From Escherichia phage vB_EcoM_01: a stretch of DNA of 64,000 nt. Shown one piece after another: positions 25,927 through 64,000 of this stretch (position 1 is its first letter; the number at the start of each line of letters is the position of its first letter). Below the pieces are notes generated by a model. It had not been told where the DNA came from and searched no databases. It saw only the letters and a program-made list of their open reading frames with translations. Location: the sequence record PP129558, one strand, 5' to 3'. Made by a program: the position numbers and the translations under genes.

Positions 25927-26024
25927 AATTATTTAATAAAGGGTTGCCAGAAAACTTTCTCTTTTACTCATGGTTTTCTCCTTCTCTCACACTTCTTCTG
26001 GTTGCCCTTCATTAAATGATTTAT

Positions 26025-26272: not shown

Positions 26273-26278
26273 ATTAAA

Positions 26279-26352: not shown

Positions 26353-26354
26353 GT

Positions 26355-26424: not shown

Positions 26425-26430
26425 CCTAAT

Positions 26431-45817: not shown

Positions 45818-46290
45818 TGGCAGATTTAACTACGATCAAAATTTCTGATCTTACACAAACAACCTCTGTGTCTGATACAGATTTCTTTGTAACAGATCAG
45901 GCTGGAATAACAAAGAAAACTTCTTTGAAAGTGCTGTTGAGTGGTGCAGGGGTAACTAGAAACCGTCTGAATGCACGGGGAACAGTAACTAGCACCTTGG
46001 CATTAGATATTAGTTCGGCAGAATATTTTTCAGCAACTTTATCTTCTGCAACGTGCACAATTAGTTTTACTAATATTCCAGTAGCAACAAATGCAGTTTT
46101 AAACTTTACTTTAGCTTTGCGTCAAGGAAGTGGTGCAAATAAAGTCGTATGGCCTTCTTCTGTAAAATGGAGTTTTGGTCGTTCCCCAGTTTTGAGTTAT
46201 CGTCAAGGTGCAACAGACACTTTTGAGTTTATCAGTTATGATAATGGAGCAACTTGGACAGGTAGCTTAGTTTTAGCAGGAGTTATTTAA
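45817..46290 (+). CDS. hypothetical tail protein
   Basis: 157 aa; ATGA coupling. Confidence 0.3.
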   Translation: MADLTTIKISDLTQTTSVSDTDFFVTDQAGITKKTSLKVLLSGAGVTRNRLNARGTVTSTLALDISSAEYFSATLSSATCTISFTNIPVATNAVLNFTLALRQGSGANKVVWPSSVKWSFGRSPVLSYRQGATDTFEFISYDNGATWTGSLVLAGVI

Positions 46291-49166
46291 TGTCAAGAGT
46301 TAAGCACAATATTGACAACACGTTTCAGTTGATTGAAGGGTTGGTTCAGTTTTTGGAAAGAAATACTGGGCTTACCATAGATCCTACGGTTCAGCATTAC
46401 ATTATCAACCCACAAAACGTATTGGCGAACAACAGACACTTTATTAACTGGACAGCGCAGGAAGGGCAACCAAACGGTGACGCTACTACCGAAGGTCAAT
46501 CTGTGCTTATCACTGGTTTTGCTTATGCATATTTGGCTACAGGGGATAAAAAATATCTTGAATCTGCCGAGAAGTATTGGCAAGCCTATATAGATCACTT
46601 CTTCGGGGGCCAACCTATTCCTGATCCTCCGGCTAAGTATCGTCCCAACTGGATCATCAATGGTAAAGAACCACGTTTAGCACATTACCCTCTCACAGAT
46701 GATGGGTATCCTACGCACGGCGGGTTCAAAGGTAGCATGATGACTTGGATTAACGGAAGGACTGTTATTCCTAAAGGTGCACCGCATTGGGGGGAATACT
46801 TAGATAAAGCTTGGTTTGCTTTCAATGGCAATCTTGGTTGGAACTCCGTTAACGCAACAGTTTATGCAACTAACCCAGATGGTTCAACCAACTGGAAAGA
46901 ATATGGAGATCAGTGGGACGTTGAATGGATTATAGACCGTCTAGGACGTAAAGTTGATTGGGATGGTAACATTTTATCTACTGGTCATAGCTTTGCAGAA
47001 TATGGAACAGTGCAACTTAAAAATGCTTCTGTGAACGGGGACTATAAATTCAACTACGCTACATGCAATCCTGTAGAACACGGTGGATATCTGCTTAAGC
47101 GTAATGAGATGTGGCATAACCGTCCTGTAAACGTTCCGGTAGAGTTAGGCTATCAAGATAATGCTTCCGATGCTGAAACGTGGTGGTGTGATGCAAACTA
47201 CTTGATGTATCAGATCACAGGAGAGAGAAAATACTGGCTTTGCTGGCAATCTTCTTTATTGTTGTGTCAAGACTACTCAAACATCGATATGTTTGATAAA
47301 TTCTTCCGTAGATCTACGACAGCAATAATTCCTTTTACAGATGGTATCTCGTATGATTACTCATACCCATCTACAGCAATACCTAAATATTCTCGTGACG
47401 AATTAGGATACACAGTAATTCGCCAAGATGTTTCAGCACAAACAACTCTAGAACAACAGGCAGTTTGGTTCAGAGTAGATCAGAATTCAAAACTGCGTAT
47501 TGAGTTTCAAGGTGTAGATGATGCAGGGGAAGGTGTTCTTTTCCGTCCAGAGCTAGAATTAAGCAAAACTAAGAGTGAAACAGACACAGTGACATATCGT
47601 TGTGGCTTACCTCTTGGTGCAGCTAATATGACTAAGATGGATATACCTTTATCTAGTTTTATGCGCACCGAACCTCCTGGAGGTGGTGTATATATTATTG
47701 CTGAACCCAGAATTATTGTTGACTGGGGAAGCAATACTGTGATACAATATAAATATGCAACTGGTATTGCTGGGACAAATAGTGATCAGATAGTTTCTGC
47801 TAATATGGATTCAGATGGTGGTTTTACTGTTGGGTTTTGGTTAACACCAACTAAAACAGCCAATTTAAAATCTATTACATATCGTTCATACGCAGATGAT
47901 TTTAACATCACTATTACGGATTCAGCAGGTTGGAGATGGTGGGCCATGTTAGAAAAAACAAATTCTGCATGGGTTACTAAAGCTTTAAGTCCTGCTGATT
48001 TCAAATTAAGTACTTGGCAACCTAATCACAATGACACAGAGACAAAACCTTCGTCAATAAACTTGACTACTGTTGATCAGATCAACATTGCATTGGATTC
48101 TGAACCTGCAAATGGCTTGACAGGGGCAATCGACTTTTATTGCGTTAACGATATCCCATCTTTGTATTCTTCAGCCGCTGGCGATGATTACACAATGTAT
48201 TTCAGGGTTACAGTTTCATCTGAAAATCCTTATACAGCAAAACTTGGAGATTGTACAATACTGGACTACAAACTTGACAGTTTGAATTATACTCCAGGAA
48301 TCATTCCATTTTCCAATATTAGTGATCCTAACACAGCATTATATGACGGTTGGCGTGGTATTCCTTACCCAGGTTATCAATACCCATCCTTATATTGTTT
48401 TAAAGGGAGAGATATTGACTGGGTTCGTATGAACAACAGTATAGACTTTTTATATGATTCACAAATGTGGTTTTATAATAAGTTTGCCCCTGTGATGCCT
48501 GGGCCAATGGCACAAGCTTATGTTTGGGATCGTTGGGATGCTCATAAATATGGAAACAAGAATGAGTTCACAATGTATCATTGGAACGATAAAGCTTGGG
48601 ATGGTTATGAAGCACGAGCATTCTTCTGTGCGTGTCATACAGTATACGAACTGAAACAACGAGGAGCAGAAGTTCCTGAAAAACTTTTAACAGTTTGTAA
48701 AAACTGGATCAACTATCTGAAGTGGTTCCAAGACAACAACGAAGGAAGAACACCAACAATATTTTATCCCGATGGAGAAGTGGCTGCGCCTGTAGATGAC
48801 TTTACAAGTCACATGTCTGCGCTCTTTATGGCGGGATGTGCTATAATGGGGATGGCTGGATATGATTCAGAAATTCCTAACATTAAAATAGTAGCAGATC
48901 GCTGTTTTGAACTTATTCAGGAAAATTATATTGTTCTTGGTCCTAATCACGTTATGAATGGTTGTTGGAGTGCTGCCCCTAGACCAGACAGTGATAACGG
49001 AGTCTTCTTTGGCTTCCACGCCGGAGAGTTGTTACGTGGTTTTGGGTTGTATGCCTTATACAAAAAACTTAATCCCCAAAATGCATTACCTGTTTTGGAT
49101 TCGAGCAATATTCCTGCACTTACTGTTTTGACAATGGCAAACATTAGTGTGGACGTTACCGAGTAA
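46290..49166 (+). CDS. large tail fibre or tailspike-like protein
   Basis: 958 aa; W/Y/N/G-rich; size and position in the tail module; no domain assignable by eye. Confidence 0.4.
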   Translation: MSRVKHNIDNTFQLIEGLVQFLERNTGLTIDPTVQHYIINPQNVLANNRHFINWTAQEGQPNGDATTEGQSVLITGFAYAYLATGDKKYLESAEKYWQAYIDHFFGGQPIPDPPAKYRPNWIINGKEPRLAHYPLTDDGYPTHGGFKGSMMTWINGRTVIPKGAPHWGEYLDKAWFAFNGNLGWNSVNATVYATNPDGSTNWKEYGDQWDVEWIIDRLGRKVDWDGNILSTGHSFAEYGTVQLKNASVNGDYKFNYATCNPVEHGGYLLKRNEMWHNRPVNVPVELGYQDNASDAETWWCDANYLMYQITGERKYWLCWQSSLLLCQDYSNIDMFDKFFRRSTTAIIPFTDGISYDYSYPSTAIPKYSRDELGYTVIRQDVSAQTTLEQQAVWFRVDQNSKLRIEFQGVDDAGEGVLFRPELELSKTKSETDTVTYRCGLPLGAANMTKMDIPLSSFMRTEPPGGGVYIIAEPRIIVDWGSNTVIQYKYATGIAGTNSDQIVSANMDSDGGFTVGFWLTPTKTANLKSITYRSYADDFNITITDSAGWRWWAMLEKTNSAWVTKALSPADFKLSTWQPNHNDTETKPSSINLTTVDQINIALDSEPANGLTGAIDFYCVNDIPSLYSSAAGDDYTMYFRVTVSSENPYTAKLGDCTILDYKLDSLNYTPGIIPFSNISDPNTALYDGWRGIPYPGYQYPSLYCFKGRDIDWVRMNNSIDFLYDSQMWFYNKFAPVMPGPMAQAYVWDRWDAHKYGNKNEFTMYHWNDKAWDGYEARAFFCACHTVYELKQRGAEVPEKLLTVCKNWINYLKWFQDNNEGRTPTIFYPDGEVAAPVDDFTSHMSALFMAGCAIMGMAGYDSEIPNIKIVADRCFELIQENYIVLGPNHVMNGCWSAAPRPDSDNGVFFGFHAGELLRGFGLYALYKKLNPQNALPVLDSSNIPALTVLTMANISVDVTE

Positions 49167-49174
49167 GGGGTAAA

Positions 49175-51328
49175 ATGAAACAAGCTATATTTACTGTCAC
49201 GCGAGACAAGAGAGTAAATGCGAGTTCATTTAACTACACGACTGTTGATGGAACAGCAGTCGCTGGTAGAGATTATATTGCAAAATCGGGAACACTTGTG
49301 TTCCCTGATGATGCTGATTCTGCTACCATTGTGGTTGAAGTATTTGAACGACCAAAGAACTCAATAGATCTTAACTTCTCCCTCCAAGTTTCAGGGATTA
49401 GTCAAAATAACATGATGGTTGAAACGACCATCAATTGTATTATAACTACTATCCAAGAAAATACTACTCCAATAACTTGGACTACAAAAGACGTTAAAAT
49501 GTTCTCTCCTATGTATTGGACAATAGACTCTCAAGCAACGGAAAGTTGTTCTATTGTATCTCATGGAGACTCTTTTACTGCAAGATTTGTAAACAGAACA
49601 ACAGCAGGTTTGGCAGGGGTTATCTGGAGCACAGTTGACAAATATGATCACAAAGGTGTTGGGTATTTACCCCACACAGATTTAAGTTCAGAGAAACTTT
49701 GGTTTAAAATGGAAATTAGTCAAAACATGCCAGGTTTTAAAGAAGAACCTTTGGTGCCGACTTTGACTGTAACTCTCCTGGATAAAAGTGTTCATTATAT
49801 CAGTTTAGGATTCTACGCTTCAGATATTTCAGAAGATGGTAAAACAGCTACAATCAAGTTAGATTTTGGTAATATCTTTTCTGGCCCTAATAATGATATT
49901 CCTTTGGATATGAGTGCTGTAGATAATATTTTCTTCTCTTTGATTACAGCAAGGTATGAAGAAATAGAAGAGGTTGTACCTATTGACAGTCAAGAGGCTT
50001 GGTTTACTTTCACTCTTCTTGAACCTACCTCTGGTTATAGTATGATGAAAGTCAGCAATCTTGTCCAGCCTGAACATGATATTCGCATGTGCACATCTTA
50101 TGATGATATGTATAACCTGACTCCAGAGAGAGTTATTTATAATACGTATGCACTAGGTTATCGTGGAATGATTAACCATTACAACGGAATGTCTCACTAT
50201 TATGAGTTCTCATGGAACGGAACATCTTGGGCTTTAAATAGATCTGTTTTCCTGAATCCGGCTACAGAAGCTTGGCTTAACAGTTTCCATTCTATAGCTA
50301 ATGAAAATGGCTACACAATAATGAACTCTTTGAGTTTTGAGTTGATGAGCACAGTTTGTCCTGTTGAATGGGTCCAGCATGATTGGAACGATGCTCTTGC
50401 AGCAACAGGGTATAAGCCTCCTAGTTACGTGTTGTCTCCAACTATTGACGAAGGCATGGAATATTTGCAAAATGTTATTAACAAAATAGCATCTATTTCT
50501 CAAGCTAATAACATTCCAGTCGTCATTCAAATTGGTGAACCTTGGTGGTGGTATAATACAGCAAGTAAAATGCCTTGCATATACGATTACACTACCAAAC
50601 TGGCATTCAACACAGAAACTGGCTTATTTGCACAAGATGCAGGAACAATAGATAATTATAAAACAGGAACGCCGTTTGACGAATACTATGCGTTTTTGTC
50701 TCGTAAACTAGGATTAAGAGTTACAAAGTTTGCAACAGATACTAGAGCAACTTACCCAGGAGCTAAAGTAACATTGCTTCCGTTCTTACCATCGATTATC
50801 GGCAACGGTTTGATGGAGAAAGTTAACTTTCCGTCTGATTACTACATTCCTGAAGCTTTTGATTTTTACTGTTCAGAGTGTTACGACTGGCTTCTGGAAG
50901 GTAAGATGATGAAAGCATTTGATGCAATTACCATACCACATGAAAAATTAGGTTTTGAATATTCTGATATTCACTATCTTTCAGGTTTTGTTCCAGATGC
51001 TACTCTTGCGCCTTTGTATGGCTTCGATCCTGAATCAAACTACCGCACGTATCTTTGGAAAATGATTATAGGTAATATAGTGTTGAACGCCAATAAGTTC
51101 AATGGGCTTACACAATATATATGGGCCTACCCTCAAATAATGCATGATTCCATCACGGTAGTTAATTCTCAATCCCAAGTTTTCTATATGGGTAATGTGC
51201 CTTTGAATTGTTATTTGCAAGATATCACTCTTAAACAAGCAAATGTTGAGATTGCTACCATAAGTGGAATTACATTAGCTACTAAATCTGGAGAAGATTT
51301 AGTAACAACACAAAAATTTTATATATAG
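49175..51328 (+). CDS. large tail-associated protein
   Basis: 717 aa; in the tail fibre module. Confidence 0.35.
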   Translation: MKQAIFTVTRDKRVNASSFNYTTVDGTAVAGRDYIAKSGTLVFPDDADSATIVVEVFERPKNSIDLNFSLQVSGISQNNMMVETTINCIITTIQENTTPITWTTKDVKMFSPMYWTIDSQATESCSIVSHGDSFTARFVNRTTAGLAGVIWSTVDKYDHKGVGYLPHTDLSSEKLWFKMEISQNMPGFKEEPLVPTLTVTLLDKSVHYISLGFYASDISEDGKTATIKLDFGNIFSGPNNDIPLDMSAVDNIFFSLITARYEEIEEVVPIDSQEAWFTFTLLEPTSGYSMMKVSNLVQPEHDIRMCTSYDDMYNLTPERVIYNTYALGYRGMINHYNGMSHYYEFSWNGTSWALNRSVFLNPATEAWLNSFHSIANENGYTIMNSLSFELMSTVCPVEWVQHDWNDALAATGYKPPSYVLSPTIDEGMEYLQNVINKIASISQANNIPVVIQIGEPWWWYNTASKMPCIYDYTTKLAFNTETGLFAQDAGTIDNYKTGTPFDEYYAFLSRKLGLRVTKFATDTRATYPGAKVTLLPFLPSIIGNGLMEKVNFPSDYYIPEAFDFYCSECYDWLLEGKMMKAFDAITIPHEKLGFEYSDIHYLSGFVPDATLAPLYGFDPESNYRTYLWKMIIGNIVLNANKFNGLTQYIWAYPQIMHDSITVVNSQSQVFYMGNVPLNCYLQDITLKQANVEIATISGITLATKSGEDLVTTQKFYI

Positions 51329-51336
51329 GAGTAAAA

Positions 51337-54174
51337 ATGTCAACTACAATTACTAATTTACCCGAAACATCAAAAGTTAATGATTCTGATTACCTGGTTT
51401 TAGACCAACCTGATAAGACTGTTAAAAGCACAGTTTCCAACTTTCTTACTGACACTGGGGTGGTTTTAGCCACCCAGTTGAAAGNNNNANNNGGGNCTGA
51501 GTTAATAGGACACAGAAACGCTACGGTTGGTGCCACTCTGGATTCAATTGCAGTCCGCTCAGATCAATTTTCTACTATTCAGGAATGGGCATCATACCCG
51601 GCAAAGAATAAAATTTTAGCGGAGGGTACTTATACTCTTGACTCAACTCNTNNNNGTGTTGAATGTGAATCACTAACCACTGAGGGTGTAGTTANNNNNN
51701 NNNNNNNNNNNNNNNNNNNNNNNNNNNNNNNNNNNNNNNNNNNNNNNNNNNNNNNNNNNNNNNNNNNNNNNNNNNNNNNNNNNNNNNNNNNNNNNNNNNN
51801 NNNNNNNNNNNNNNNNNNNNNNNNNNNNNNNNNNNNNNNNNNNNNNNNNNNNNNNNNNNNNNNNNNNNNNNNNNNNNNNNNNNNNNNNNNNNNNNNNNNN
51901 NNNNNNNNNNNNNNNNNNNNNNNNNNNNNNNNNNNNNNNNNNNNNNNNNNNNNNNNNNNNNNNNNNNNNNNNNNNNNNNNNNNNNNNNNNNNNNNNNNNN
52001 NNNNNNNNNNNNNNNNNNNNNNNNNNNNNNNNNNNNNNNNNNNNNNNNNNNNNNNNNNNNNNNNNNNNNNNNNNNNNNNNNNNNNNNNNNNNNNNNNNNN
52101 NNNNNNNNNNNNNNNNNNNNNNNNNNNNNNNNNNNNNNNNNNNNNNNNNNNNNNNNNNNNNNNNNNNNNNNNNNNNNNNNNNNNNNNNNNNNNNNNNNNN
52201 NNNNNNNNNNNNNNNNNNNNNNNNNNNNNNNNNNNNNNNNNNNNNNNNNNNNNNNNNNNNNNNNNNNNNNNNNNNNNNNNNNNNNNNNNNNNNNNNNNNN
52301 NNNNNNNNNNNNNNNNNNNNNNNNNNNNNNNNNNNNNNNNNNNNNNNNNNNNNNNNNNNNNNNNNNNNNNNNNNNNNNNNNNNNNNNNNNNNNNNNNNNN
52401 NNNNNNNNNNNNNNNNNNNNNNNNNNNNNNNNNNNNNNNNNNNNNNNNNNNNNNNNNNNNNNNNNNNNNNNNNNNNNNNNNNNNNNNNNNNNNNNNNNNN
52501 NNNNNNNNNNNNNNNNNNNNNNNNNNNNNNNNNNNNNNNNNNNNNNNNNNNNNNNNNNNNNNNNNNNNNNNNNNNNNNNNNNNNNNNNNNNNNNNNNNNN
52601 NNNNNNNNNNNNNNNNNNNNNNNNNNNNNNNNNNNNNNNNNNNNNNNNNNNNNNNNNNNNNNNNNNNNNNNNNNNNNNNNNNNNNNNNNNNNNNNNNNNN
52701 NNNNNNNNNNNNNNNNNNNNNNNNNNNNNNNNNNNNNNNNNNNNNNNNNNNNNNNNNNNNNNNNNNNNNNNNNNNNNNNNNNNNNNNNNNNNNNNNNNNN
52801 NNNNNNNNNNNNNNNNNNNNNNNNNNNNNNNNNNNNNNNNNNNNNNNNNNNNNNNNNNNNNNNNNNNNNNNNNNNNNNNNNNNNNNNNNNNNNNNNNNNN
52901 NNNNNNNNNNNNNNNNNNNNNNNNNNNNNNNNNNNNNNNNNNNNNNNNNNNNNNNNNNNNNNNNNNNNNNNNNNNNNNNNNNNNNNNNNNNNNNNNNNNN
53001 NNNNNNNNNNNNNNNNNNNNNNNNNNNNNNNNNNNNNNNNNNNNNNNNNNNNNNNNNNNNNNNNNNNNNNNNNNNNNNNNNNNNNNNNNNNNNNNNNNNN
53101 NNNNNNNNNNNNNNNNNNNNNNNNNNNNNNNNNNNNNNNNNNNNNNNNNNNNNNNNNNNNNNNNNNNNNNNNNNNNNNNNNNNNNNNNNNNNNNNNNNNN
53201 NNNNNNNNNNNNNNNNNNNNNNNNNNNNNNNNNNNNNNNNNNNNNNNNNNNNNNNNNNNNNNNNNNNNNNNNNNNNNNNNNNNNNNNNNNNNNNNNNNNN
53301 NNNNNNNNNNNNNNNNNNNNNNNNNNNNNNNNNNNNNNNNNNNNNNNNNNNNNNNNNNNNNNNNNNNNNNNNNNNNNNNNNNNNNNNNNNNNNNNNNNNN
53401 NNNNNNNNNNNNNNNNNNNNNNNNNNNNNNNNNNNNNNNNNNNNNNNNNNNNNNNNNNNNNNNNNNNNNNNNNNNNNNNNNNNNNNNNNNNNNNNNNNNN
53501 NNNNNNNNNNNNNNNNNNNNNNNNNNNNNNNNNNNNNNNNNNNNNNNNNNNNNNNNNNNNNNNNNNNNNNNNNNNNNNNNNNNNNNNNNNNNNNNNNNNN
53601 NNNNNNNNNNNNNNNNNNNNNNNNNNNNNNNNNNNNNNNNNNNNNNNNNNNNNNNNNNNNNNNNNNNNNNNNNNNNNNNNNNNNNNNNNNNNNNNNNNNN
53701 NNNNNNNNNNNNNNNNNNNNNNNNNNNNNNNNNNNNNNNNNNNNNNNNNNNNNNNNNNNNNNNNNNNNNNNNNNNNNNNNNNNNNNNNNNNNNNNNNNNN
53801 NNNNNNNNNNNNNNNNNNNNNNNNNNNNNNNNNNNNNNNNNNNNNNNNNNNNNNNNNNNNNNNNNNNNNNNNNNNNNNNNNNNNNNNNNNNNNNNNNNNN
53901 NNNNNNNNNNNNNNNNNNNNNNNNNNNNNNNNNNNNNNNNNNNNNNNNNNNNNNNNNNNNNNNNNNNNNNNNNNNNNNNNNNNNNNNNNNNNNNNNNNNN
54001 NNGGTTATCTATGATAAGGAGACGCAAAGGGCGTATTCCCTACCTGCTGATATTGCCCCAGGTACTACTGCCATTAGTCTTAGTGCTGCTGTACTTGTGC
54101 ATTCGGCGGGTTCTGTAGACCTTGGGGAATTAGCTGTATCTTGTGATTTAAAAAGTAATGAGAACACACTATGA
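51337..54174 (+). CDS. tail fibre protein interrupted by an assembly gap
   Basis: N-terminus MSTTITNLPETSKVNDSDYLVLD is fibre-like; the interior is an N run, so length and frame continuity are unknown. Confidence 0.35.
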   Translation: MSTTITNLPETSKVNDSDYLVLDQPDKTVKSTVSNFLTDTGVVLATQLKXXXGXELIGHRNATVGATLDSIAVRSDQFSTIQEWASYPAKNKILAEGTYTLDSTXXXVECESLTTEGVVXXXXXXXXXXXXXXXXXXXXXXXXXXXXXXXXXXXXXXXXXXXXXXXXXXXXXXXXXXXXXXXXXXXXXXXXXXXXXXXXXXXXXXXXXXXXXXXXXXXXXXXXXXXXXXXXXXXXXXXXXXXXXXXXXXXXXXXXXXXXXXXXXXXXXXXXXXXXXXXXXXXXXXXXXXXXXXXXXXXXXXXXXXXXXXXXXXXXXXXXXXXXXXXXXXXXXXXXXXXXXXXXXXXXXXXXXXXXXXXXXXXXXXXXXXXXXXXXXXXXXXXXXXXXXXXXXXXXXXXXXXXXXXXXXXXXXXXXXXXXXXXXXXXXXXXXXXXXXXXXXXXXXXXXXXXXXXXXXXXXXXXXXXXXXXXXXXXXXXXXXXXXXXXXXXXXXXXXXXXXXXXXXXXXXXXXXXXXXXXXXXXXXXXXXXXXXXXXXXXXXXXXXXXXXXXXXXXXXXXXXXXXXXXXXXXXXXXXXXXXXXXXXXXXXXXXXXXXXXXXXXXXXXXXXXXXXXXXXXXXXXXXXXXXXXXXXXXXXXXXXXXXXXXXXXXXXXXXXXXXXXXXXXXXXXXXXXXXXXXXXXXXXXXXXXXXXXXXXXXXXXXXXXXXXXXXXXXXXXXXXXXXXXXXXXXXXXXXXXXXXXXXXXXXXXXXXXXXXXXXXXXXXXXXXXXXXXXXXXXXXXXXXXXXXXXXXXXXXXXXXXXXXXXXXXXXXXXXXXXXXXXXXXXXXXXXXXXXXXXXXXXXXXXXXXXXXXXXXXXXXXXXXXXXXXXXXXXXXXXXXXXXXXXXXXVIYDKETQRAYSLPADIAPGTTAISLSAAVLVHSAGSVDLGELAVSCDLKSNENTL
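51485..54002. other. assembly gap: scattered ambiguous bases (51485-51655) and N run 51695-54002
   Basis: Runs of n in the sequence; the ORFs across it on both strands are artefacts. Confidence 0.95.
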
Positions 54175-54413
54175 GAAAATTTTTAATAGGTATGTTCTGT
54201 ACATATCCTGATAATAAAGTCAGTTCTACGAAAGTCTGGAACGCTGTAGGCATGTCGGTTATGACAGGCATGTTTATCTTTTTAGGAATAGAAAAAGAAA
54301 TTCCTGAATGGATGGGTTGGGCTTTTGTTTTCATGATAACTCCTTCTCGCCTCATGAAAAATCTTATTGATTTACGCTGGGGCAGATCACAATCTACCAA
54401 AGAGGATGACTAA
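54171..54413 (+). CDS. small membrane protein (possible holin-like, two hydrophobic segments)
   Basis: 80 aa; two hydrophobic stretches and a charged C-terminus; overlaps neighbours by ATGA. Confidence 0.3.
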   Translation: MRKFLIGMFCTYPDNKVSSTKVWNAVGMSVMTGMFIFLGIEKEIPEWMGWAFVFMITPSRLMKNLIDLRWGRSQSTKEDD

Positions 54414-55900: not shown

Positions 55901-55902
55901 AA

Positions 55903-56532
55903 ATGGCAGTGAGTGTTGACCATGTAACAACTTGGGCCAGTATCAATGAAGACGTTAAAAACCTTCTGATTGAAGATTTTAAATCTTCTCCTAACATTGT
56001 CAAGCTCCTCTACATCGTATCCAGTGAAAAGCAAAAGATAGATCAGGCAATGATCTATCTTGCTAAACACCGCTTGATCTCCACAGCCACAGGCAAATAC
56101 CTAGATATCTTAGGAGAAGAAATGGGGATCGAACGTAATGGCTCTGATGATGAAGAGTATAGAACAATATTAAAAATCAGGGCTTACCGCGTAGCCTCAT
56201 CGGGGACTCGTGGTGACATAATTGATATCTTCGCCCGTTTCACAGGAACAGAGCGTGAAACGCTTAATACTTACGTAGGTTTGAATAAAACCTTTGATGT
56301 GTTTTTCTACAACCTGTGTCTTCAATCTGATCAAGCTTTAGAGCAGTTGCTAAGTGTTTTCCCTATTATTAGTAGCTACCGTCTTGGAGCAAAAGCAGGA
56401 TCAGCTTTTGGTTTTAGTTCTTATTATGCTACCAAACCACCTCATGGTATTGGTGGTTTAGGTTCCCTGTACATGGAATCTACTGGGGATGAAACAGGAC
56501 GCATGTGTACGCTTCTCAAGCAAATAGATTAA
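55903..56532 (+). CDS. baseplate or tail protein (gpI-like position)
   Basis: 209 aa; between the J-like protein and a tail fibre. Confidence 0.3.
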   Translation: MAVSVDHVTTWASINEDVKNLLIEDFKSSPNIVKLLYIVSSEKQKIDQAMIYLAKHRLISTATGKYLDILGEEMGIERNGSDDEEYRTILKIRAYRVASSGTRGDIIDIFARFTGTERETLNTYVGLNKTFDVFFYNLCLQSDQALEQLLSVFPIISSYRLGAKAGSAFGFSSYYATKPPHGIGGLGSLYMESTGDETGRMCTLLKQID

Positions 56533-56541
56533 GGAGTTTAA

Positions 56542-57603
56542 ATGGCGAAGCCAATATATTATCCTGACTGGGCTACACAAACTGTAACGCTCCCAGGAAC
56601 TTTAAACACAAACAAAATTAGACCTAAAGAAACCATCCGCACAGTTGGTATGGATTATGGTCAAATCATGACTTGCGAAGAAATGAACTGGATTCTTAAT
56701 AATATCGGTTTATGGATTCGTTATTTGGTGGATGACTTTATTCCAACTTTACCTAATACTTACTTGCCTTTAGTTGGAACTAAGATTACAATGGCAGGTG
56801 ATGCTACTGGTGAGGCTACTTGGAACGGTGATAAAGAAGTTATTTTATCTGTCCAAGTTCAAGATAACAGTCATAATCACTTATCGGCAAACATTACAGA
56901 TGCTACTAGTTCAATAGTAACACCAAATGTGTTGGTAAAACGTGATGCAGGTGGTGCTATTTATGGTGGTGATGTTTATGTTAATGGTACTTCCACAACA
57001 GATCCTGCAACCCTGTTTTTCAAGAACTTTGCAGGACAGACTAATGGTGAGATTTCTGCCGAATACCAAAGTGGAGGTCAGCTTTATATTTATCGTAGAA
57101 ATCCTAGTACAGGTAGTGTAGCCGCAGGTGTTCGTTTATATGATGCAGGTTATGTTCTAATAGACAATCCAAGATCAAACAATGGACAAGACACTTCTAA
57201 CGGAAATGCCTTGGTTCGCTTAGATTATCTGAATTCTCGTTTGACTTCTCTTCAGAACACATTGCAAACGAATATTAATACTGTTCAAAACAACCTGAAT
57301 AGTGTTAACAACAACCTCTCTTCCCGTATAAACAATGTAGAAAGTAATCATCAAAGTCAGATTACAAATAACTACAACTATGCTAATGGAACCTTTGTAA
57401 GAGATATTCGTTACACTAGCCAAGGTGTGTATTATCCGCCAGGGAACGAAGTTTCTTGGACTTATATCTGTTCTTCTGGTTATGTTCTTTCTGGTATTAT
57501 TGTTCAGGAAACAGGTCGTAGTTCTGCGGATAACATTGGTGGGGTTTACTTCAAACGCCTCCAGCGCAACGTTAACGGAAACTGGTACGATATTGGAGGC
57601 TAA
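56542..57603 (+). CDS. tail fibre protein
   Basis: 353 aa; N/Q/S/T-rich repeats (NTLQTNINTVQNNLNSVNNNLSS); followed by an assembly chaperone. Confidence 0.45.
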   Translation: MAKPIYYPDWATQTVTLPGTLNTNKIRPKETIRTVGMDYGQIMTCEEMNWILNNIGLWIRYLVDDFIPTLPNTYLPLVGTKITMAGDATGEATWNGDKEVILSVQVQDNSHNHLSANITDATSSIVTPNVLVKRDAGGAIYGGDVYVNGTSTTDPATLFFKNFAGQTNGEISAEYQSGGQLYIYRRNPSTGSVAAGVRLYDAGYVLIDNPRSNNGQDTSNGNALVRLDYLNSRLTSLQNTLQTNINTVQNNLNSVNNNLSSRINNVESNHQSQITNNYNYANGTFVRDIRYTSQGVYYPPGNEVSWTYICSSGYVLSGIIVQETGRSSADNIGGVYFKRLQRNVNGNWYDIGG

Positions 57604-58149
57604 ATGATATTTACAAATTTTAAAAAGTATATTCCTGAAGATCCTGAACTAAAAGAATTGGTAGAAGCAGAGAACATTCTTTTCCTTCGTTGTGATCAAG
57701 GTTACGATTGGTATGATTTACGTAGCACAGAATTCAATAACGATAAAATGAAAGTCGTTTTTGATGATCAAAATCGTATTGTGTTTTGGAATACTGATCC
57801 TACACTACTTTGCCCTGAAGATCTTTCTATAGCACAAGTAGACTTTAATATAGATACTTTTGAGGATATTAGGAACAAGGTTTTGGATTTAGAAACCTTA
57901 ACTCTTAAGGATAAAGAGTATTCCCGTGAAGAGTTGATGACGCAAGCTAGTGCAAAGATTCGCTCTTTACAAGAGACAGCGGTAGCACTTATAACACCTT
58001 TACAATATGCTAAAGATTTAGAAATGGCTACTGAAGATGAATTAGCTTATCTTAAAAATCTTCAAGTTTATGTGGTTAAACTAAACCGTGTTCCGCTTCA
58101 AAAAAACTATCCTTACACTATAGATTGGCCTACATTACCGACGGAATAA
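57604..58149 (+). CDS. tail fibre assembly protein (Tfa-like)
   Basis: 181 aa; C-terminal YPYTIDWPTLP resembles the conserved Tfa C-terminus; directly downstream of a fibre gene. Confidence 0.5.
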   Translation: MIFTNFKKYIPEDPELKELVEAENILFLRCDQGYDWYDLRSTEFNNDKMKVVFDDQNRIVFWNTDPTLLCPEDLSIAQVDFNIDTFEDIRNKVLDLETLTLKDKEYSREELMTQASAKIRSLQETAVALITPLQYAKDLEMATEDELAYLKNLQVYVVKLNRVPLQKNYPYTIDWPTLPTE

Positions 58150-58158
58150 GGGATCACT

Positions 58159-58494
58159 ATGGAATTTCAAGAAGCATGGGGACTTGCAAAGGATGCAATC
58201 ATCCCTTTAATCGGAGTCATCTGGTTCTTTTTCAAACAAAAAATGGATAAATTCGGCTCTGATCTTGAGGAAATGGAGGAGAAAAGTCGAGAGCTAGAGA
58301 AGAAGTTGGTCTTTGTTGAATCAACTTATGCAACTAAAGCCGAACTTACCCAGATGCTAAATCAAATTAACTCTACATTAATGGCAAATAATAACACTCT
58401 TGAGCAAAAGATTGAAAAGATTATGGACCTCAAGAATGCTACTATTCAAATGATGCTAGATGACATAGTTAAACGTACACAGAATAAGGGGTAA
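58159..58494 (+). CDS. hypothetical membrane-anchored coiled-coil protein
   Basis: 111 aa; N-terminal hydrophobic segment (AIIPLIGVIWFFF) then coiled coil. Confidence 0.3.
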   Translation: MEFQEAWGLAKDAIIPLIGVIWFFFKQKMDKFGSDLEEMEEKSRELEKKLVFVESTYATKAELTQMLNQINSTLMANNNTLEQKIEKIMDLKNATIQMMLDDIVKRTQNKG

Positions 58495-58497
58495 TTA

Positions 58498-61400
58498 ATG
58501 GCAACATTCCCAACATATCCAGCAACGTCTCTTGAACAGGGCGTAGATCTGGTTATTTTCTCGTCTAACCAACTCCATGATGTTATTAATGGAAGTGCTA
58601 CAGAGAGTATTGAAACAGAATCAGGGTTGATACCAACCCTGAGAAAAGCCCTTGTTGACAACTTTTTCTTTAAAAGTCCATTAGATTGGGCGCAAGGCAC
58701 AAACGAAACAGTTTTTAACCAACTTCGTTATTTCCAGAACGGAGTGTTGAGTGGTTATTACTATGCGCCTAATGCTACGCTGGTAAACCCAATTCCTATG
58801 CAAGGGACTCCAGTAGGAGATAACAACTGGGTATTGTGGGGACTGAAGACAGAACAACTAGCAACAGAAGTCACCCCTTGGGTATATTCTGGTGCAACTG
58901 GTTATGAAACAGTAATCAGTCCTCCCTACATCTTTGATAGTGCTATTGTTACAATCAATGGTGTTATTCAGGTTCTGGGAGAAGCTTTCCGCATAGAAGA
59001 TAGTAAAATCATTTTATCTGAACCTTTGGGACATGATCCTGCAACAGGACTGCCAAACAAGCTTTTTGCCTATATTGGTAAAATCGTAGCTTCCGCAGAT
59101 ACAGATCCTAACTTAGAAAACCGTCTTGTCAGTTTAGAAACAAAAACTGAAGAACTGACAGAAAGCATGGATAAAGTACCTTTACAAACTATTGCTCGTA
59201 AATACGGTTTGTTGGATGATGAAGTAGCTTACGCAACAGCGGGTCAATCATTAACAGGGATTAAAGCTCTGTATGATCCGGTAGCACAATCTTCCTACAC
59301 ATTGCCTCCTAACATCACAGGGACTTTAACATCTTTGTCTGTTTCTGGAGTAATGACTTATTCTGGCGGATCTGTAGACCTTTCTGCATTAGCTGTTGAA
59401 CGTGGACAGTTTGTTCATTTGCCTACAAGCTTTGGTAATAACGTAACTCTGACAGCTAAAAATCAGACGATTGGGCGTGGCGCTGGTCGCTATCGTTGGG
59501 CGGGGAGTTTACCAAAAAGTATTTTAGCTTCTGATACATTGGAAACAAGTGGTGGATTAGGTCCAAATGCATGGGTTCTAACTAATACAGAAGGACTGTT
59601 AACCCCTCGTGGTGGAACATACAACGATTTATTCGATGTTGTCTACTTGTCAGAATTTGCTAACAATACAACTACCTATGCCACACCAGAAGCAGCTTTC
59701 CAGGCGGCACTGTTAGCAGCAAAAGCTTCGAAAAGTAAGATTCTCGACGCTTACGGTTGTGATATGACTTTCACGACAAGCTCTTTTGATATTCAAGATA
59801 TCACTTTGCGTGGGGGTGTGTTCCGTGGTCAACGCGACTATCGTGTGCAAAATGCTACAGTAGAAGGCACAACTTTCCGTAACTCTCGTGTTATGTATTG
59901 GGGTGGTGCTGTGCGCATGTTCGATTGTTTGTGGGACGGTGCTCCTCGCGCAGGTCAAGTTGGTAGCTTGGTATTCCAAGGCAACCCAATATCAGGTACT
60001 TTTGAAATTGATAATTGTACTTTTAAAAATGGGTTATATGGCATCCTTCAACAAGGAACAGGGGAACCAGTAACACGTGGTGTCTTCCGTAACCTTACCT
60101 TCATGGACATGCAAGGTGATGCAATAGAACTGAACGTCATCAATAAACATTATGACGATGGTTGTGTGATTGAGAATATTTACCTGTCTAATATCGATGG
60201 GACTAACGCTCCTATTCCTCTGTCCAACTGGGGTATCGGTATCGGTGTAGCTGGTAAAGGACCATATGGTTACGGAATCCCTGATGATCAATATTGCAAG
60301 AATATTACAATTCGTAACGTTTTTGCAAAACGTTGTCGTCAGATTGTCCACGTAGAAGTTGGTCGTAATATCTCTATCGAAAACATTCATGGCGATCCAG
60401 ATCAAACCGTATCTGTTGGGACAGGTTTGGCAACAGGCGCAGTTGTAATGTATGGAAGTAAAGATTTTACGATTGACGGTGTTTACGGAGAGCCTAAAAC
60501 AGACGGTAGCACACTTGCAAGTAATATCCGTATGATTTATTTGGAGTGGGGAACTAACGCAGTTCTGGACGAAGAGGGTAATCCGGTAGTTCCGGCACAG
60601 GGTAGACCTTCAAACCCATGCTTTAACTATTCTGTTCGTAACATTCACACCAAAACTGGGCGTGTTTTTGCGGGAGTTTCCGCTGGGCCAGGTTATGAAA
60701 ACAGAGTTAGCTTTGAAAATATTCGTTGCGCTGCATTGCAGTTGTTCGGTATAGCTTCTTGGCTTTCAATGTCTAACATCACCTGTAATATCTTCGATTG
60801 TGTTGGTCAACCTGAATCTGGTCCAGGGACATTTTATGATGGATTCTTCCGTAGAGAAAAATCTGTTCTTGAAATGGTTAACGTAAACTGTTACCCAGAT
60901 GGCAAGACGATGGTTACTGGTCGTCCACAGTGGAGCCGTTGCCGTTACTCGGATATTCATCGTGTCAACTGTAATGTTGAAGCTAATATGTATACCAATA
61001 TCGCAGGTGGTATTGGAGCTATTGTAGGGACAACGGGCAAAGTTTATTACTTAGAGCCTAATCCTAGTCGAAACATTGATGGAATGCATTTCCCAACAGG
61101 GAAAGAGTTTGACAAAGGTGATATGATAGTCAAGGCGGATAATACGTTCTTCCTTGTAACAACAAGTGGGGCATATATTCCAGATATCCCAGCTTTCGGT
61201 ATTCGAGCTACACAAGCAGGAGATACCTTCCTGACACAGAACTTGACTCCTAACGGGACAGCAACAAATGCTTCTTGGTTGTATCATTACCCTCTGTCAG
61301 CAGGGACACGTATCCGTATTCCTGGTGCTGGCGTAGGTGGAGCAGATTTGGACACAGTTATTACTCGTGCACCTTATCAAGATAATGATACGTGGACTAA

Positions 61401-61551
61401 CCCAGTTAAAATAGACATTGCAGATCCAATTGTAACGCCTACAAGTGCTGGAGTTAGAATTAAAACCATACCTAATGATTCCAGTAATGTTTCTGTAGGT
61501 AATACTGCGGTTATTCGCCCAACGCCAGTAGTAGATGTGCCAACAACCTAA
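58498..61551 (+). CDS. tailspike or tail fibre with beta-helix-like repeats (possible depolymerase)
   Basis: 1017 aa; central region with recurring N-I-x-I/V-x-N motifs (NITIRNVF, ISIENIHG, YSVRNIHT, SFENIRC) suggestive of a parallel beta-helix. Confidence 0.45.
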   Translation: MATFPTYPATSLEQGVDLVIFSSNQLHDVINGSATESIETESGLIPTLRKALVDNFFFKSPLDWAQGTNETVFNQLRYFQNGVLSGYYYAPNATLVNPIPMQGTPVGDNNWVLWGLKTEQLATEVTPWVYSGATGYETVISPPYIFDSAIVTINGVIQVLGEAFRIEDSKIILSEPLGHDPATGLPNKLFAYIGKIVASADTDPNLENRLVSLETKTEELTESMDKVPLQTIARKYGLLDDEVAYATAGQSLTGIKALYDPVAQSSYTLPPNITGTLTSLSVSGVMTYSGGSVDLSALAVERGQFVHLPTSFGNNVTLTAKNQTIGRGAGRYRWAGSLPKSILASDTLETSGGLGPNAWVLTNTEGLLTPRGGTYNDLFDVVYLSEFANNTTTYATPEAAFQAALLAAKASKSKILDAYGCDMTFTTSSFDIQDITLRGGVFRGQRDYRVQNATVEGTTFRNSRVMYWGGAVRMFDCLWDGAPRAGQVGSLVFQGNPISGTFEIDNCTFKNGLYGILQQGTGEPVTRGVFRNLTFMDMQGDAIELNVINKHYDDGCVIENIYLSNIDGTNAPIPLSNWGIGIGVAGKGPYGYGIPDDQYCKNITIRNVFAKRCRQIVHVEVGRNISIENIHGDPDQTVSVGTGLATGAVVMYGSKDFTIDGVYGEPKTDGSTLASNIRMIYLEWGTNAVLDEEGNPVVPAQGRPSNPCFNYSVRNIHTKTGRVFAGVSAGPGYENRVSFENIRCAALQLFGIASWLSMSNITCNIFDCVGQPESGPGTFYDGFFRREKSVLEMVNVNCYPDGKTMVTGRPQWSRCRYSDIHRVNCNVEANMYTNIAGGIGAIVGTTGKVYYLEPNPSRNIDGMHFPTGKEFDKGDMIVKADNTFFLVTTSGAYIPDIPAFGIRATQAGDTFLTQNLTPNGTATNASWLYHYPLSAGTRIRIPGAGVGGADLDTVITRAPYQDNDTWTNPVKIDIADPIVTPTSAGVRIKTIPNDSSNVSVGNTAVIRPTPVVDVPTT

Positions 61552-61557
61552 TGGAAT

Positions 61558-61583
61558 AGAGGGGGAATCCCCCCTCTTCTTCC
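61558..61583 (+). terminator. terminator-like hairpin
   Basis: AGAGGGGG-AATC-CCCCCTCT stem; weak U tract. Confidence 0.35.
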
Positions 61584-61613
61584 AATAGAATGGTCTAATG
61601 ATAGGAGAGATAA

Positions 61614-63638
61614 ATGAATTTAACAAGACCTAATAGTGCGATAGCCGATCTGGTAGAAGCTACTTATCGAAAACGTCGCAGCTTTGAGGCAGGTTTTACA
61701 TTACGTAATTCCCGTGAAGTTTTGCTGTTAGCAGCAGAAGGGAATTATTACCAATGGAAAGGAACTTTTCCTAAAGTAGTTCCAGCAAACTCTACGCCAG
61801 CCACCACAGGTGGTATTTCTTCCCTTGCATGGCAAAGTGTTGGGACCGCTGATGATATAGCAATTATCAATGCCAAGTTTACGGCAGTGCAACAACAGAT
61901 CGATGATTTGTCAGAAGCAATACCTGAAGCTGGTAAATCGGCTTATCAGATCGCACTTGATAATGGTTTTGTTGGAACAGAAGCACAATGGCTTGCTTCT
62001 TTGAAAGGGGATACTGGTGCTCAACTTAATATTAAAGGATCATTAGCAAGCACTAGTGAACTACCATCTACAGGTAACGTTGCAGGGGATGGTTATATCG
62101 TAGGTGATGTTATTTACGCTTGGGACGGTTCTGTTTGGAAACTTATTTCTTCTCTTGGACCAGAAGGGAAATCAGCTTACGAGGTATGGTTGGCAGATGG
62201 TAATACAGGATCTGTTTATGACTTTCTTGCCTCTATAAAAGGTGATAAAGGAGACGTTGGTCCTACAGGTCCACAGGGTGCACCTGGTGTCAACGCTAAT
62301 GGTTTTGATTATCGTGGGGATTTGCCTTCTACAAGTAACTTACCACAACCTAACTCTGAAAACGTAAGCCAAGCTTATTCTATCAGTGGTAATCTTTATG
62401 TCTCCAATGGGACAGCTTGGGTCAACATGGGTAATATTGTTGGTCCTCAAGGTCCACAAGGTGAGGCAGGTAAAGACGGTCTAGATGGAACAGATGGAGA
62501 TGAAGGGAAATCTGCATATCAAAGTTGGCTGGATGCTGGTAATGAAGGGACAGAAGTAGATTTTATTGCCTCGCTTAAAGGTCCAAAAGGAGACAAGGGA
62601 GAGCAAGGAGAACGAGGACCACAAGGCGAATTAGGTCCACAAGGACCAGTGGGTGCAACAGGATCAGGTTTAGAGATTATCGGGGTTCTGAACAGCGAAG
62701 CTGAACTTCCTCCGACTGGAGAAGTAGGTGACGCATATAAAATTAATAATGATTTGTATGTTTGGGTTCAAGATGCTACGGAATGGATGAATGTTGGTAG
62801 TCTTGGAGGAACATCAATTACAGCTAAAGGTCATGTTCCGAACAGTGAAGCTCTACCTGTTTACAATAACTATGGTGATGCTTACTTAACTGAAGACACT
62901 AGTAATCTTTACATCTATACCTACGATCAAGACACCAATTCCGCATCTTTTGTTGACATGGGAAGTATTAAAGGCGACAAAGGTGAAAAAGGGGATAAAG
63001 GAGATAAGGGTGATCCTGGAACAAACGGAACCAACGGTACTGATGGGACCAACGGTAAGGACGGCGCACAGTGGTTTGTAGCAACAACTAATCCAGTCAC
63101 AGGAGACGGTGTTATCAATGATTACGCCTTCAATACTACTACTGGAGCAGTATTTAAGAAAACAGATTCTTCTACGTGGACACTTATAGGAACTCTTCCT
63201 AGTATACCAGAAGCCCCTCAAGACGGCTTGACGTATGGTCGTTCTGATGGAAACTGGATCGAAATATCAGGATCAGATCCTACGGAAGCTATAACACCAA
63301 CTAAAGTTACAGCAGGTTTCATGGAACTTGAAACAACTACTGCCAACTCTGGAGCATCTTGGACTCCTTCTGGAACTTCCAATATGTATGTTGTTACAGT
63401 AACTGACGCTCTGACAGTTGGAGCATGGCCTGGTGTCACTGGCTCTACAAAACCTAAAGCGTTTTCAGCAATGATTTATTTGATTCAAGATACAACGGGA
63501 CACACGGTTACACTAGATGCGTCTTATGGAGCACTAAATGATACAGAAATAGCAACTACTGCTAACGCAGTAACAATTTTGCAATTAACGTATCCTGGTG
63601 TGGGTGATATCGTGGACATGGTTGTTGTAACACGATAA
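61614..63638 (+). CDS. tail fibre with collagen-like Gly-X-Y repeats and three phage-tail-fibre-repeat motifs
   Basis: 674 aa; Gly-X-Y runs (GPQGPQGEAGKDGLDG, GPKGDKGEQGERGPQGELGPQGPVGATG, GDKGEKGDKGDKGDPGTNGTNGTDG) and three GKSAYxxWLxxGxxGxxxxFxASLKG repeats. Confidence 0.6.
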   Translation: MNLTRPNSAIADLVEATYRKRRSFEAGFTLRNSREVLLLAAEGNYYQWKGTFPKVVPANSTPATTGGISSLAWQSVGTADDIAIINAKFTAVQQQIDDLSEAIPEAGKSAYQIALDNGFVGTEAQWLASLKGDTGAQLNIKGSLASTSELPSTGNVAGDGYIVGDVIYAWDGSVWKLISSLGPEGKSAYEVWLADGNTGSVYDFLASIKGDKGDVGPTGPQGAPGVNANGFDYRGDLPSTSNLPQPNSENVSQAYSISGNLYVSNGTAWVNMGNIVGPQGPQGEAGKDGLDGTDGDEGKSAYQSWLDAGNEGTEVDFIASLKGPKGDKGEQGERGPQGELGPQGPVGATGSGLEIIGVLNSEAELPPTGEVGDAYKINNDLYVWVQDATEWMNVGSLGGTSITAKGHVPNSEALPVYNNYGDAYLTEDTSNLYIYTYDQDTNSASFVDMGSIKGDKGEKGDKGDKGDPGTNGTNGTDGTNGKDGAQWFVATTNPVTGDGVINDYAFNTTTGAVFKKTDSSTWTLIGTLPSIPEAPQDGLTYGRSDGNWIEISGSDPTEAITPTKVTAGFMELETTTANSGASWTPSGTSNMYVVTVTDALTVGAWPGVTGSTKPKAFSAMIYLIQDTTGHTVTLDASYGALNDTEIATTANAVTILQLTYPGVGDIVDMVVVTR

Positions 63639-63641
63639 CAG

Positions 63642-63666
63642 AAGCCCCGAAAGGGGCTTTCTTTTT
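63642..63666 (+). terminator. intrinsic terminator
   Basis: AAGCCCC-GAAA-GGGGCTT hairpin followed by TCTTTTT. Confidence 0.7.
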
Positions 63667-63679
63667 ATGGAGGGTTTAA

Positions 63680-64000
63680 ATGTTTCCAATTCCAATATTT
63701 ACTATTATGACCAGCACTGGTGTCGTTCCTCTGCCAGCAGGTATTGTTAAAAAAGTAATCACTTTAGATTACCCAGATAATGCTGGCAATTCTAATAGCA
63801 GTTTAGCAATTTTGCTTAATGATGGTAGATTGTTTACTCAAGGCGCAAACCTTTTTGGTGAGATTGCAGATGGAACTCGTAGTGCACGATTCAATAATTT
63901 CCACTTAGCTTCTACTGTAGTAGCGGATGTGTTTACCGCAGATCGTTGTTTTGTTATTAAAACTAACAGTGGAGGATGGCAATATTCAGGATTGACAGCA
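63680..64000 (+). CDS. hypothetical tail-associated protein, 5-prime partial at window end
   Basis: ATG at 63680 behind GGAGGG; open to the last base of the window (107 codons). Confidence 0.35.
   Translation, partial: MFPIPIFTIMTSTGVVPLPAGIVKKVITLDYPDNAGNSNSSLAILLNDGRLFTQGANLFGEIADGTRSARFNNFHLASTVVADVFTADRCFVIKTNSGGWQYSGLTA

Follow-up and report, generated by a model that had tools for sequence, protein, structure and literature searches.

We examined the host-recognition genes in a 64,000-nt stretch of the genome of Escherichia phage vB_EcoM_01 (PP129558; hereafter, the window, numbered from its first base). A preliminary description of the sequence had placed at 46290-64000 a module of six large fibre or spike-like proteins (958, 717, about 945, 353, 1017 and 674 aa), interleaved with baseplate genes and a Tfa-like chaperone, and had proposed that they build a branched apparatus aimed at several surface glycans. 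Our comparisons indicate that this interval is very probably the distal part of a baseplate and host-recognition operon, orthologous gene for gene to gp140-gp151 of phage phi92, the multivalent adsorption apparatus of that phage. The principal features, in window coordinates, are:

46290-49166, + strand: 958-aa conserved tail protein, gp141 orthologue, with a predicted (alpha/alpha)6 glycoside-hydrolase-like barrel and beta-sandwich inserts resembling carbohydrate-binding modules (CBMs)
49175-51328, + strand: 717-aa protein with Calx-beta and N4 gp64/gp65-like TIM-barrel domains (PF03160, PF23844, PF23845), gp142 orthologue
51337-51694, + strand: readable 5' end (119 codons) of the hypervariable tailspike gene at the gp143 position
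51695-54002, no strand: run of N, 2308 bases
54004-54174, + strand: 3' end of a separate small open reading frame (ORF), resembling a free-standing tailspike N-domain, 96% identical to the C-terminus of an ORF of phage Ro121c4YLVW
56542-57603, + strand: 353-aa short tail fibre, Mu gpS-like (fibre III, gp147 orthologue; phrog_4465, E = 3.9e-107)
57604-58149, + strand: tail-fibre assembly chaperone, Tfa/Mu gpU-like (PF02413, E = 2.2e-13; phrog_136)
58498-61551, + strand: 1017-aa tailspike with an anchor (residues 1-215), CBA120/G7C-type N-domains (~226-400) and a colanidase-like beta-helix (~415-1000)
61614-63638, + strand: 674-aa collagen-like fibre, gp151 orthologue, 60% identical (PF18668, E = 1.2e-19; Collagen, E = 3.2e-12)

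In BLASTP searches each gene from 42318 to 63638 matched exactly one phi92 partner, gp135 to gp151, in the same order. Protein identities were 70% for gp135, 74% for gp136, 83% for gp137, 73% for the central spike, 74% for gp139, 83% for both gp140 and gp141, 77% for gp142, 81% for gp144, 80% for gp145, 87% for gp146, 76% for gp149 and 60% for gp151. The gp147 orthologue was 73% identical over its shaft only, the gp148 counterpart 23% identical, and the gp150 orthologue 75% identical over residues 1-215 and 33% identical over the beta-helix. The ORFs follow one another closely on the + strand, at spacings of -4 to +62 nt, and have Shine-Dalgarno sequences before their starts. A promoter scan of the sequence returned hits at chance level (42 found, 41.8 expected), and two guanine-cytosine (GC)-rich, terminator-like hairpins, at 61561-61573 after the colanidase gene and at 63641-63660 (+ strand) after the collagen-like fibre gene, occupy the only two sizeable intergenic gaps of the module. 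The bounds of 46290-64000 proved too narrow at both ends: the module starts upstream, at ~42318, with the tube initiator, hub and central spike, and a further tail protein that begins at 63680 runs off the end of the window. Schwarzer et al. are said to have described the multivalent adsorption apparatus of phi92 in 2012.

Both readable halves of the interval were compared with sequenced phages by megablast, which matched 128 phage records; about 60 of these aligned along their full length, at 95-99% identity. The matching genomes include phAPEC8, Ro121c4YLVW, SF1-1, AV126 and other members of Phapecoctavirus (Stephanstirmvirinae), and gene order is identical in Ro121c4YLVW, phAPEC8 and SF1-1. 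Against about 60 Phapecoctavirus genomes, the nucleotide identity of both halves is 97-98.7%. At the protein level, the 1017-aa protein is 100% identical to a cluster of 169 members and the 958-aa protein 99% identical to a cluster of 478. Because of this nucleotide identity and these near-identical protein clusters, we classify the window, on sequence grounds, as a piece of the genome of a phAPEC8-like lytic myovirus. We rejected an origin from a tailocin or prophage, as capsid, ribonucleotide reductase and tRNA genes are present and the match to lytic phage genomes runs end to end. Near-identity to dozens of sequenced phages also means that the module is real but ordinary: it is already known, and we claim no discovery.

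The least legible part of the module is the locus between the gp142 and gp144 orthologues. N accounts for 3538 positions of the window, and the largest run (51695-54002) falls inside the fibre interval; other runs lie at 4124-4975 and 21483-21844, with short ones at 21473, 26175-26177, 51485-51496 and 51650-51655. ORF predictions whose frames are read through N were set aside as artefacts: 4034-4990, the set at 21348-22015, 51337-54174, and 51673-54027 on the - strand. The third of these is the protein of about 945 aa, which is 81% N and legible only in 119 codons at its 5' end and 56 codons at its 3' end. Taken together, residues 1-119 show 89% identity with the 618-aa allele of phages ALITA and 10C3, which carries Gp49 pectate-lyase-like and tailspike protein (TSP) immunoglobulin-like domains. 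At the other end, the final 56 aa agree at 96% identity with the C-terminus of a 102-aa ORF that stands apart from the spike gene in Ro121c4YLVW, and they also match small, separate ORFs of ALITA and SF1-1; none of the five relatives examined has a spike gene that ends in this sequence. Since N makes up 81% of the ORF and relatives have its two readable ends in different genes, the 945-aa protein is, as judged by this comparison, a read-through artefact that joins the 5' end of a spike gene to the 3' end of a separate small ORF.

Comparison of the five relatives further identifies the spike locus as a hypervariable host-range cassette behind a conserved N-terminal anchor. They carry four unrelated spike alleles (618, 625, 762 and 921 aa) that have only the first ~54 aa in common, and this anchor, found in all alleles, is present in the window. 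Per genome, the cassette comprises 921 aa in phAPEC8, 762 + 102 aa in Ro121c4YLVW, 625 + 70 aa in SF1-1 and 618 aa in ALITA/10C3; the locus is 2834 nt long in the window. An exact 51-mer of the readable allele had no match in viral contigs, and blastn with the readable part found only four phages, at 88-90% identity, so the exact allele was not recovered. The small ORF that lies between the spike cassette and a membrane-protein gene (L001 21586-21894) measures 102, 70 or 63 aa among relatives. Alignment of the 102-aa version from Ro121c4YLVW to residues 230-300 of the 1017-aa spike gives 42% identity; the ORF may thus encode a free-standing tailspike N-domain, either a relic of a lost spike gene or a small adaptor.

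The 1017-aa protein can be assigned, from both its sequence and its predicted structure, to the beta-helix tailspikes of the phi92 gp150 colanidase family. A phmmer search aligned its residues 427-1000 with the crystal structure of gp150, the colanidase of phi92 (6e0v; E = 1e-78), and the protein matches phrog_6117, annotated 'colanic acid degradation', over its full length (E = 2e-282). The AlphaFold2 (AF2) model (mean predicted local distance difference test score, pLDDT, 73.7) is strand-rich over residues 415-830, and its top Foldseek match is again 6e0v (E = 3e-37, target-normalised TM-score 0.66), followed by the tailspikes of Sf6, HK620 and AS12 and by beta-helix lyases and hydrolases such as chondroitinase B and PL6 lyases. 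The preliminary description had recognized beta-helix-like repeats in one of the large proteins and had named structure prediction as the check that might overturn them; because the model is a beta-helix like that of 6e0v, the claim stands. Residues 1-215 form a particle-binding module apart from the enzymatic body. These N-terminal ~200 aa recur on many spikes, in phage contigs of ~150 kb, with other C-termini (Pectate_lyase_3, NosD, SGNH), and they resemble the modelled N-terminus of the phiTE long fibre, which binds wedge 2A and the sheath initiator (PMC11972413). Relative to phi92 gp150, ~240 residues are inserted between anchor and helix. The insertion contains a stretch (residues ~226-400) with matches to the N-terminal domains of the CBA120 spikes TSP1, TSP3 and TSP4 and of gp63.1 from G7C (E = 1e-26 to 1e-30), and PF18668 (Tail_spike_N) spans residues 302-361.

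A second point of cassette exchange, beside the spike locus, can be recognized at the short fibre. Residues 1-267 of the 353-aa fibre are 73% identical to gp147, and its tip has no gp147 match; the tip (residues 286-353) matches instead the short tail fibre of phiTE (PDB 9cuy_c, E = 4e-23). The chaperone gene begins at the base right after the stop codon of the fibre gene. Its product scores 50.9 bits against PF02413 (Caudo_TAP; cut-off 22.1), which agrees with the Tfa-like assignment made at the outset. With the shaft 73% identical, the tip unmatched and the chaperone at 23% to gp148, the sequences indicate that the distal tip and the Tfa chaperone were exchanged together relative to phi92 (57343-58149). 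Related fibre and chaperone pairs belong with Mu gpS/gpU, and the terminal receptor of such fibres has been placed in the lipopolysaccharide (LPS) outer core (PMC8594841).

The 674-aa fibre does contain the collagen runs and the three tail-fibre repeats first reported for it. Four uninterrupted Gly-X-Y runs of 6, 8, 10 and 11 triplets occupy residues 210-227, 277-300, 323-352 and 454-486 (PF01391, Collagen, 46.4 bits against a cut-off of 27.2). A 32-residue 'GKSAY...W...G..G....F..S.KG' repeat is present three times, its copies having a mutual identity of 47-63%, and there are four 'LP..GDAY..LY.W....W...G' units; the larger repeat units align with z-scores of 14-30 relative to shuffles. After the last collagen run and before the C-terminal knob lies a foldon-like segment, IPEAPQDGLTYGRSDGNWIEIS (residues 530-551, 63201-63266), in which 12 of 22 positions equal the T4 fibritin foldon; the matches to fibritin in the PDB are weak (E = 0.003-0.08). 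The knob itself resembles the C-terminus of the phiTE long tail fibre (9cuy_g). A Tail_spike_N domain (PF18668) at residues 12-77 gives the sole similarity found when the module proteins were searched all against all by BLASTP (1017-aa versus 674-aa protein, E = 6e-4), and no other anchor common to module proteins emerged from that search. Domains of the CBA120-like kind are limited to Tail_spike_N types in these two proteins, with a weak match to TSP2 (6w4q, E = 1e-7).

Judged from sequence and predicted structure, the 958-aa and 717-aa proteins are not fibres, as they have neither a trimeric fibre nor a beta-helix architecture. The model of the 958-aa protein folds as a six-hairpin (alpha/alpha)6 barrel with CBM-like jelly-roll domains. 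In the fold search, identity to (alpha/alpha)6 glycoside hydrolases (GH8, GH76, GH88 and GH105-like) was 9-13%. A Pfam scan gave no match, neither the family-specific catalytic residues nor the sequence homology of (alpha/alpha)6 glycoside hydrolases was found, and sequence and profile searches of the PDB returned nothing useful (best profile match a GH76, E = 0.11). We therefore describe a predicted fold resemblance to glycoside hydrolases, not family membership. Many Asp, Glu, His, Arg and Trp positions are invariant in the barrel halves and the first beta insert of this family; the second CBM-like beta domain (~400-660) has few invariant positions.

The 717-aa protein scores well above the cut-off of 27 bits for PF23844 (NCTSP_N, 58.5 bits) and PF23845 (NCTSP TIM barrel, 266 bits, E = 5.5e-79). 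It matches N4 gp64 (E = 7e-30) and gp65 (E = 1e-12; PDB 9lc0/9yf4), which are the sheath subunits of that phage (PMC13434306), and contains a GMSHY motif at residues 338-342. Homology to N4 gp64 was noted by Maffei et al. as a 'poly-GlcNAc deacetylase domain' (PMC8594841). A 2026 preprint, on the basis of genetic screens and comparative genomics, assigned NGR glycan recognition to phi92 gp142, with the GMSHY motif perfectly conserved. By analogy, the 717-aa protein is probably an NGR-glycan binder. A homologue of 1557 aa (P0101) is a natural fusion of a 958-like part with a 717-like part that lacks Calx-beta (51% identity over 585 aa), which suggests that the two proteins act together. Further homologues are extended to 1400-1650 aa by different C-terminal additions (PF21722, PF09684).

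The remaining genes of the block, including the upstream part of the baseplate, are:

42318-43019, + strand: tube initiator (Dit-like), gp135 orthologue, 70% identical (Pfam Dit_like, E = 9e-27; role from PMC13450770)
43022-43435, + strand: baseplate plug or spacer, gp136 orthologue, 74% identical (role from PMC13450770)
43445-44455, + strand: baseplate hub, gp137 orthologue, 83% identical (Pfam E217_GP41)
44455-45189, + strand: central membrane-piercing spike, 73% identical to the phi92 spike (Pfam N- and C-terminal spike domains, E = 8.5e-32)
45191-45817, + strand: sheath initiator, gp139 orthologue, 74% identical, with a faint gp25-like match (role from PMC13450770)
45817-46290, + strand: small 157-aa fibre-like protein, gp140 orthologue, 83% identical (phrog_9017 'tail fiber', E = 2.7e-68)
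54171-54413, + strand: 80-aa small hydrophobic protein, gp144 orthologue, 81% identical
54413-55900, + strand: baseplate wedge subunit (Baseplate_J), gp145 orthologue, 80% identical (Pfam; phrog_6)
55903-56532, + strand: second wedge subunit, gp146 orthologue, 87% identical (phrog_4056, E = 6.8e-81; DUF2612)
58159-58494, + strand: 111-aa protein, gp149 orthologue, 76% identical (phrog_15210)
63680-64000, + strand: 5' end of a further tail protein, cut by the end of the window; the orthologue in Ro121c4YLVW has 891 aa

The two wedge genes bear out the observation that baseplate genes are interleaved with the fibres, and the gp145-type wedge is the attachment platform for fibres I and III in the phi92 cryo-electron microscopy (cryo-EM) structure (PMC13450770). 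The 111-aa protein is called a lipoprotein in PHROGs and in deposited genomes; we reject this label, as no lipobox cysteine was found in it. It has a hydrophobic segment at its N-terminus and is otherwise rich in charged residues. The gene at 63680 has no counterpart among phi92 gp152/gp153, and its 891-aa orthologue combines an RCC1-like propeller with Big_2 immunoglobulin-like domains (first 571 aa). Elsewhere in the window, 11 tRNA genes are clustered on the + strand at 24496-26509, where coding switches from the - to the + strand, and the GC skew changes sign at ~23-24 kb, at the tRNA cluster.

In phi92, cryo-EM showed that six wedge heterotrimers bear three sets of six fibres, with fibre II joined to the base of fibre I, fibre III formed by gp147, and fibre I inferred to bear the gp143 endosialidase (PMC13450770). 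The arrangement has been called a multivalent adsorption apparatus, or a 'nanosized Swiss army knife' (PMC8594841). We propose a comparable course of adsorption here, the steps of which draw on the phi92, phiTE, N4 and CBA120 literature; gene content, folds and exchange points come from comparison. Six wedge heterotrimers of the 495-aa and 209-aa proteins would bear three sets of six trimeric fibres. On the upper face of the wedge, fibre I would have the variable spike as its tip, and this spike would break down a capsule or O-antigen specific to the strain. Colanic acid would be cleared by the 1017-aa spike, whose N-terminal 200 aa would hold it to the wedge and the sheath initiator. The conserved NGR glycan would be bound or processed by the 717-aa protein, perhaps jointly with the 958-aa protein, and the collagen-like fibre would probably dock through its Tail_spike_N domain onto another spike. 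As a last step, the downward-pointing 353-aa fibre would bind the LPS core, and the ensuing rearrangement would open the wedge ring and trigger contraction of the sheath. Differences in host range among close relatives would then come mainly from exchange of cassettes at the spike locus and at the short-fibre tip with its chaperone.

How the individual proteins are to be understood depends on several competing explanations. Taken literally, the preliminary description has six separate large fibre or spike proteins building a branched apparatus, and all six ORFs do stand in the mechanical ORF list; deposited genomes, moreover, often label homologues of the 958-aa and 717-aa proteins 'tail fiber'. 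We nevertheless consider that version highly improbable: the 945-aa ORF is mostly N with ends from different genes, and the 958-aa and 717-aa models are a barrel with jelly-roll domains and a Calx-beta plus TIM-barrel protein. What survives is the placement of the 958-, 717-, 353-, 1017- and 674-aa ORFs and the core idea of a multi-glycan receptor-binding apparatus, which the phi92 orthology supports; two of the listed fibres are instead globular and carbohydrate-enzyme-like, and one is a product of the N run. These two globular proteins could also be purely structural parts of the baseplate periphery, for instance of an L-shaped fibre I arm, whose enzyme-derived folds neither bind nor catalyse. 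This is possible, if not what we expect. Conservation of both is among the highest at the locus (83% and 77% identity with the phi92 proteins, and 43-55% along their whole length in distant phages), receptor-binding proteins are typically variable, and N4 gp64/gp65, with the same TIM barrel, form a structural sheath (PMC13434306). However, a conserved receptor such as NGR would likewise account for a conserved binder, the screens and comparative genomics tie the gp142 family, with a motif that is present here, to NGR, and the barrel halves and first beta insert of the 958-aa family hold many invariant Asp, Glu, His, Arg and Trp positions. That the pair forms one physical unit, an active glycan-processing complex explaining the fibre II or arm density of phi92-type particles, strikes us as rather doubtful.

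For the 1017-aa spike, colanic acid as the substrate is suggested by the phrog_6117 match together with the demonstrated activity of phi92 gp150, which degrades colanic acid at the Glc-Fuc beta-1,4 linkage (PMC13450770). Some other glycan is conceivable but unlikely: specificity commonly shifts among tailspikes at a divergence like the 33% identity seen over this beta-helix, and the ~240-residue insertion sets the protein further apart, yet the family match covers the full length, the closest fold match is the colanidase itself, and the protein is almost invariant in ~60 phages from varied E. coli, Shigella and Klebsiella hosts, a pattern consistent with a substrate found across enterobacteria. 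A connection of the module to a phage-encoded rhamnose pathway had also been suggested. Genes for RmlA-like (184-1062, 292 aa) and RmlB-like (1071-2063, 330 aa) proteins do lie on the - strand beside ribonucleotide reductase genes; in Ro121c4YLVW they are followed by RmlC and a further 'nucleotide-sugar epimerase' (possible RmlD), which here would fall at or beyond the left edge of the window, and three or four glycosyltransferase genes occur near the tail module in relatives. Functional coupling of the fibres to deoxythymidine diphosphate (dTDP)-rhamnose, through either rhamnosylated fibres or a rhamnose-containing receptor, is nonetheless extremely improbable. The rml genes are ~45 kb from the module, on the opposite strand and among nucleotide-metabolism genes, no domain indicating rhamnose was found in the module, and the rml genes appear in the literature as a putative dTDP-glycosylation machinery, in connection with restriction sensitivity (PMC8594841). 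We therefore regard the suggested connection as unsupported.

Some points count against equating the module with the phi92 apparatus in every detail. All of the claims for this phage come from comparison with others. The 2308 bases of N fall in the variable, and hence most informative, gene. In its catalytic part the 1017-aa spike keeps only 33% identity with the characterised phi92 enzyme, which makes colanic acid a presumed substrate. Fibre II of phi92 is unassigned, and models of gp150, gp151 and gp140 misfit its density (PMC13450770); for this reason the placement of individual proteins on the baseplate is tentative. The phi92 cryo-EM paper leaves gp141 and gp142 unmentioned (PMC13450770). 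The predictions of the NGR preprint cover Vequintavirus, Justusliebigvirus and Enquatrovirus, with Phapecoctavirus not explicit.

As a discovery the module has little value, given that near-identical sequences are in GenBank and that such a module has been described since 2012. Its practical value lies in annotation: the '945-aa' protein should no longer be propagated, and the 958-aa and 717-aa proteins should lose the label 'fibre'. The real host-range determinant of the phage, the spike cassette, is concealed by the N run. Some value also attaches to what the gp141/gp142-type pair does and where it is placed.

Several known systems resemble the module. The N4 sheath of gp64/gp65 (PDB 9lc0, 9yf4) has in common with the 717-aa protein its NCTSP_N and TIM-barrel domains as well as GMSHY, the segment to which NGR recognition has been linked; in N4, however, these belong to a podovirus tail sheath, whereas here they belong to a baseplate-associated myovirus protein with an N-terminal Calx-beta domain. 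With the CBA120 complex of Ackermannviridae and with G7C gp63.1/gp66, the module has PF18668 in common, in the 1017-aa and 674-aa proteins, and the former also matches the N-terminal domains of TSP1, TSP3, TSP4 and gp63.1 over residues 226-400; the enzymatic domains and the baseplate are unrelated, and no TSP2/TSP4-type scaffold was found here. The phage phiTE (PDB 9cuy, PMC11972413) has a short-fibre tip like that of the 353-aa protein, a long-fibre N-terminus like that of the 1017-aa protein and a long-fibre C-terminus like the knob of the 674-aa protein, but in phiTE, which is flagellotropic, these long-fibre modules lie on one 793-aa fibre (PMC11972413).

Parallels are also found in rV5 and the Vequintavirinae, which have three lateral fibre sets, a conserved N4 gp64-like 'deacetylase-domain' protein, a Mu gpS/gpU-like short fibre with its chaperone, and allelic variation limited to a few large genes (PMC8594841). 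They differ in belonging to another subfamily, and rV5 has two short-fibre paralogues and different variable genes. In phi92 (Justusliebigvirus) the gene order is the same, identities are 60-87% for the anchor, wedge, short-fibre shaft, gp141, gp142, gp149 and gp151, and the colanidase family, with its solved structure (6e0v), is held in common. In contrast to phi92, the gp143 position is occupied by a spike other than the endosialidase allele, with a readable N-terminus like that of the ALITA/10C3 allele; the short-fibre tip and chaperone (23% identity for the chaperone) are swapped; the colanidase, 804 aa long in phi92, has 1017 aa here, its helix being 33% identical and an N-domain module of the CBA120/G7C type being inserted; and the downstream gene encodes an RCC1/Big_2 protein instead of gp152/gp153. 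From the Phapecoctavirus genomes phAPEC8, Ro121c4YLVW, SF1-1 and AV126, the module differs in the spike cassette only.

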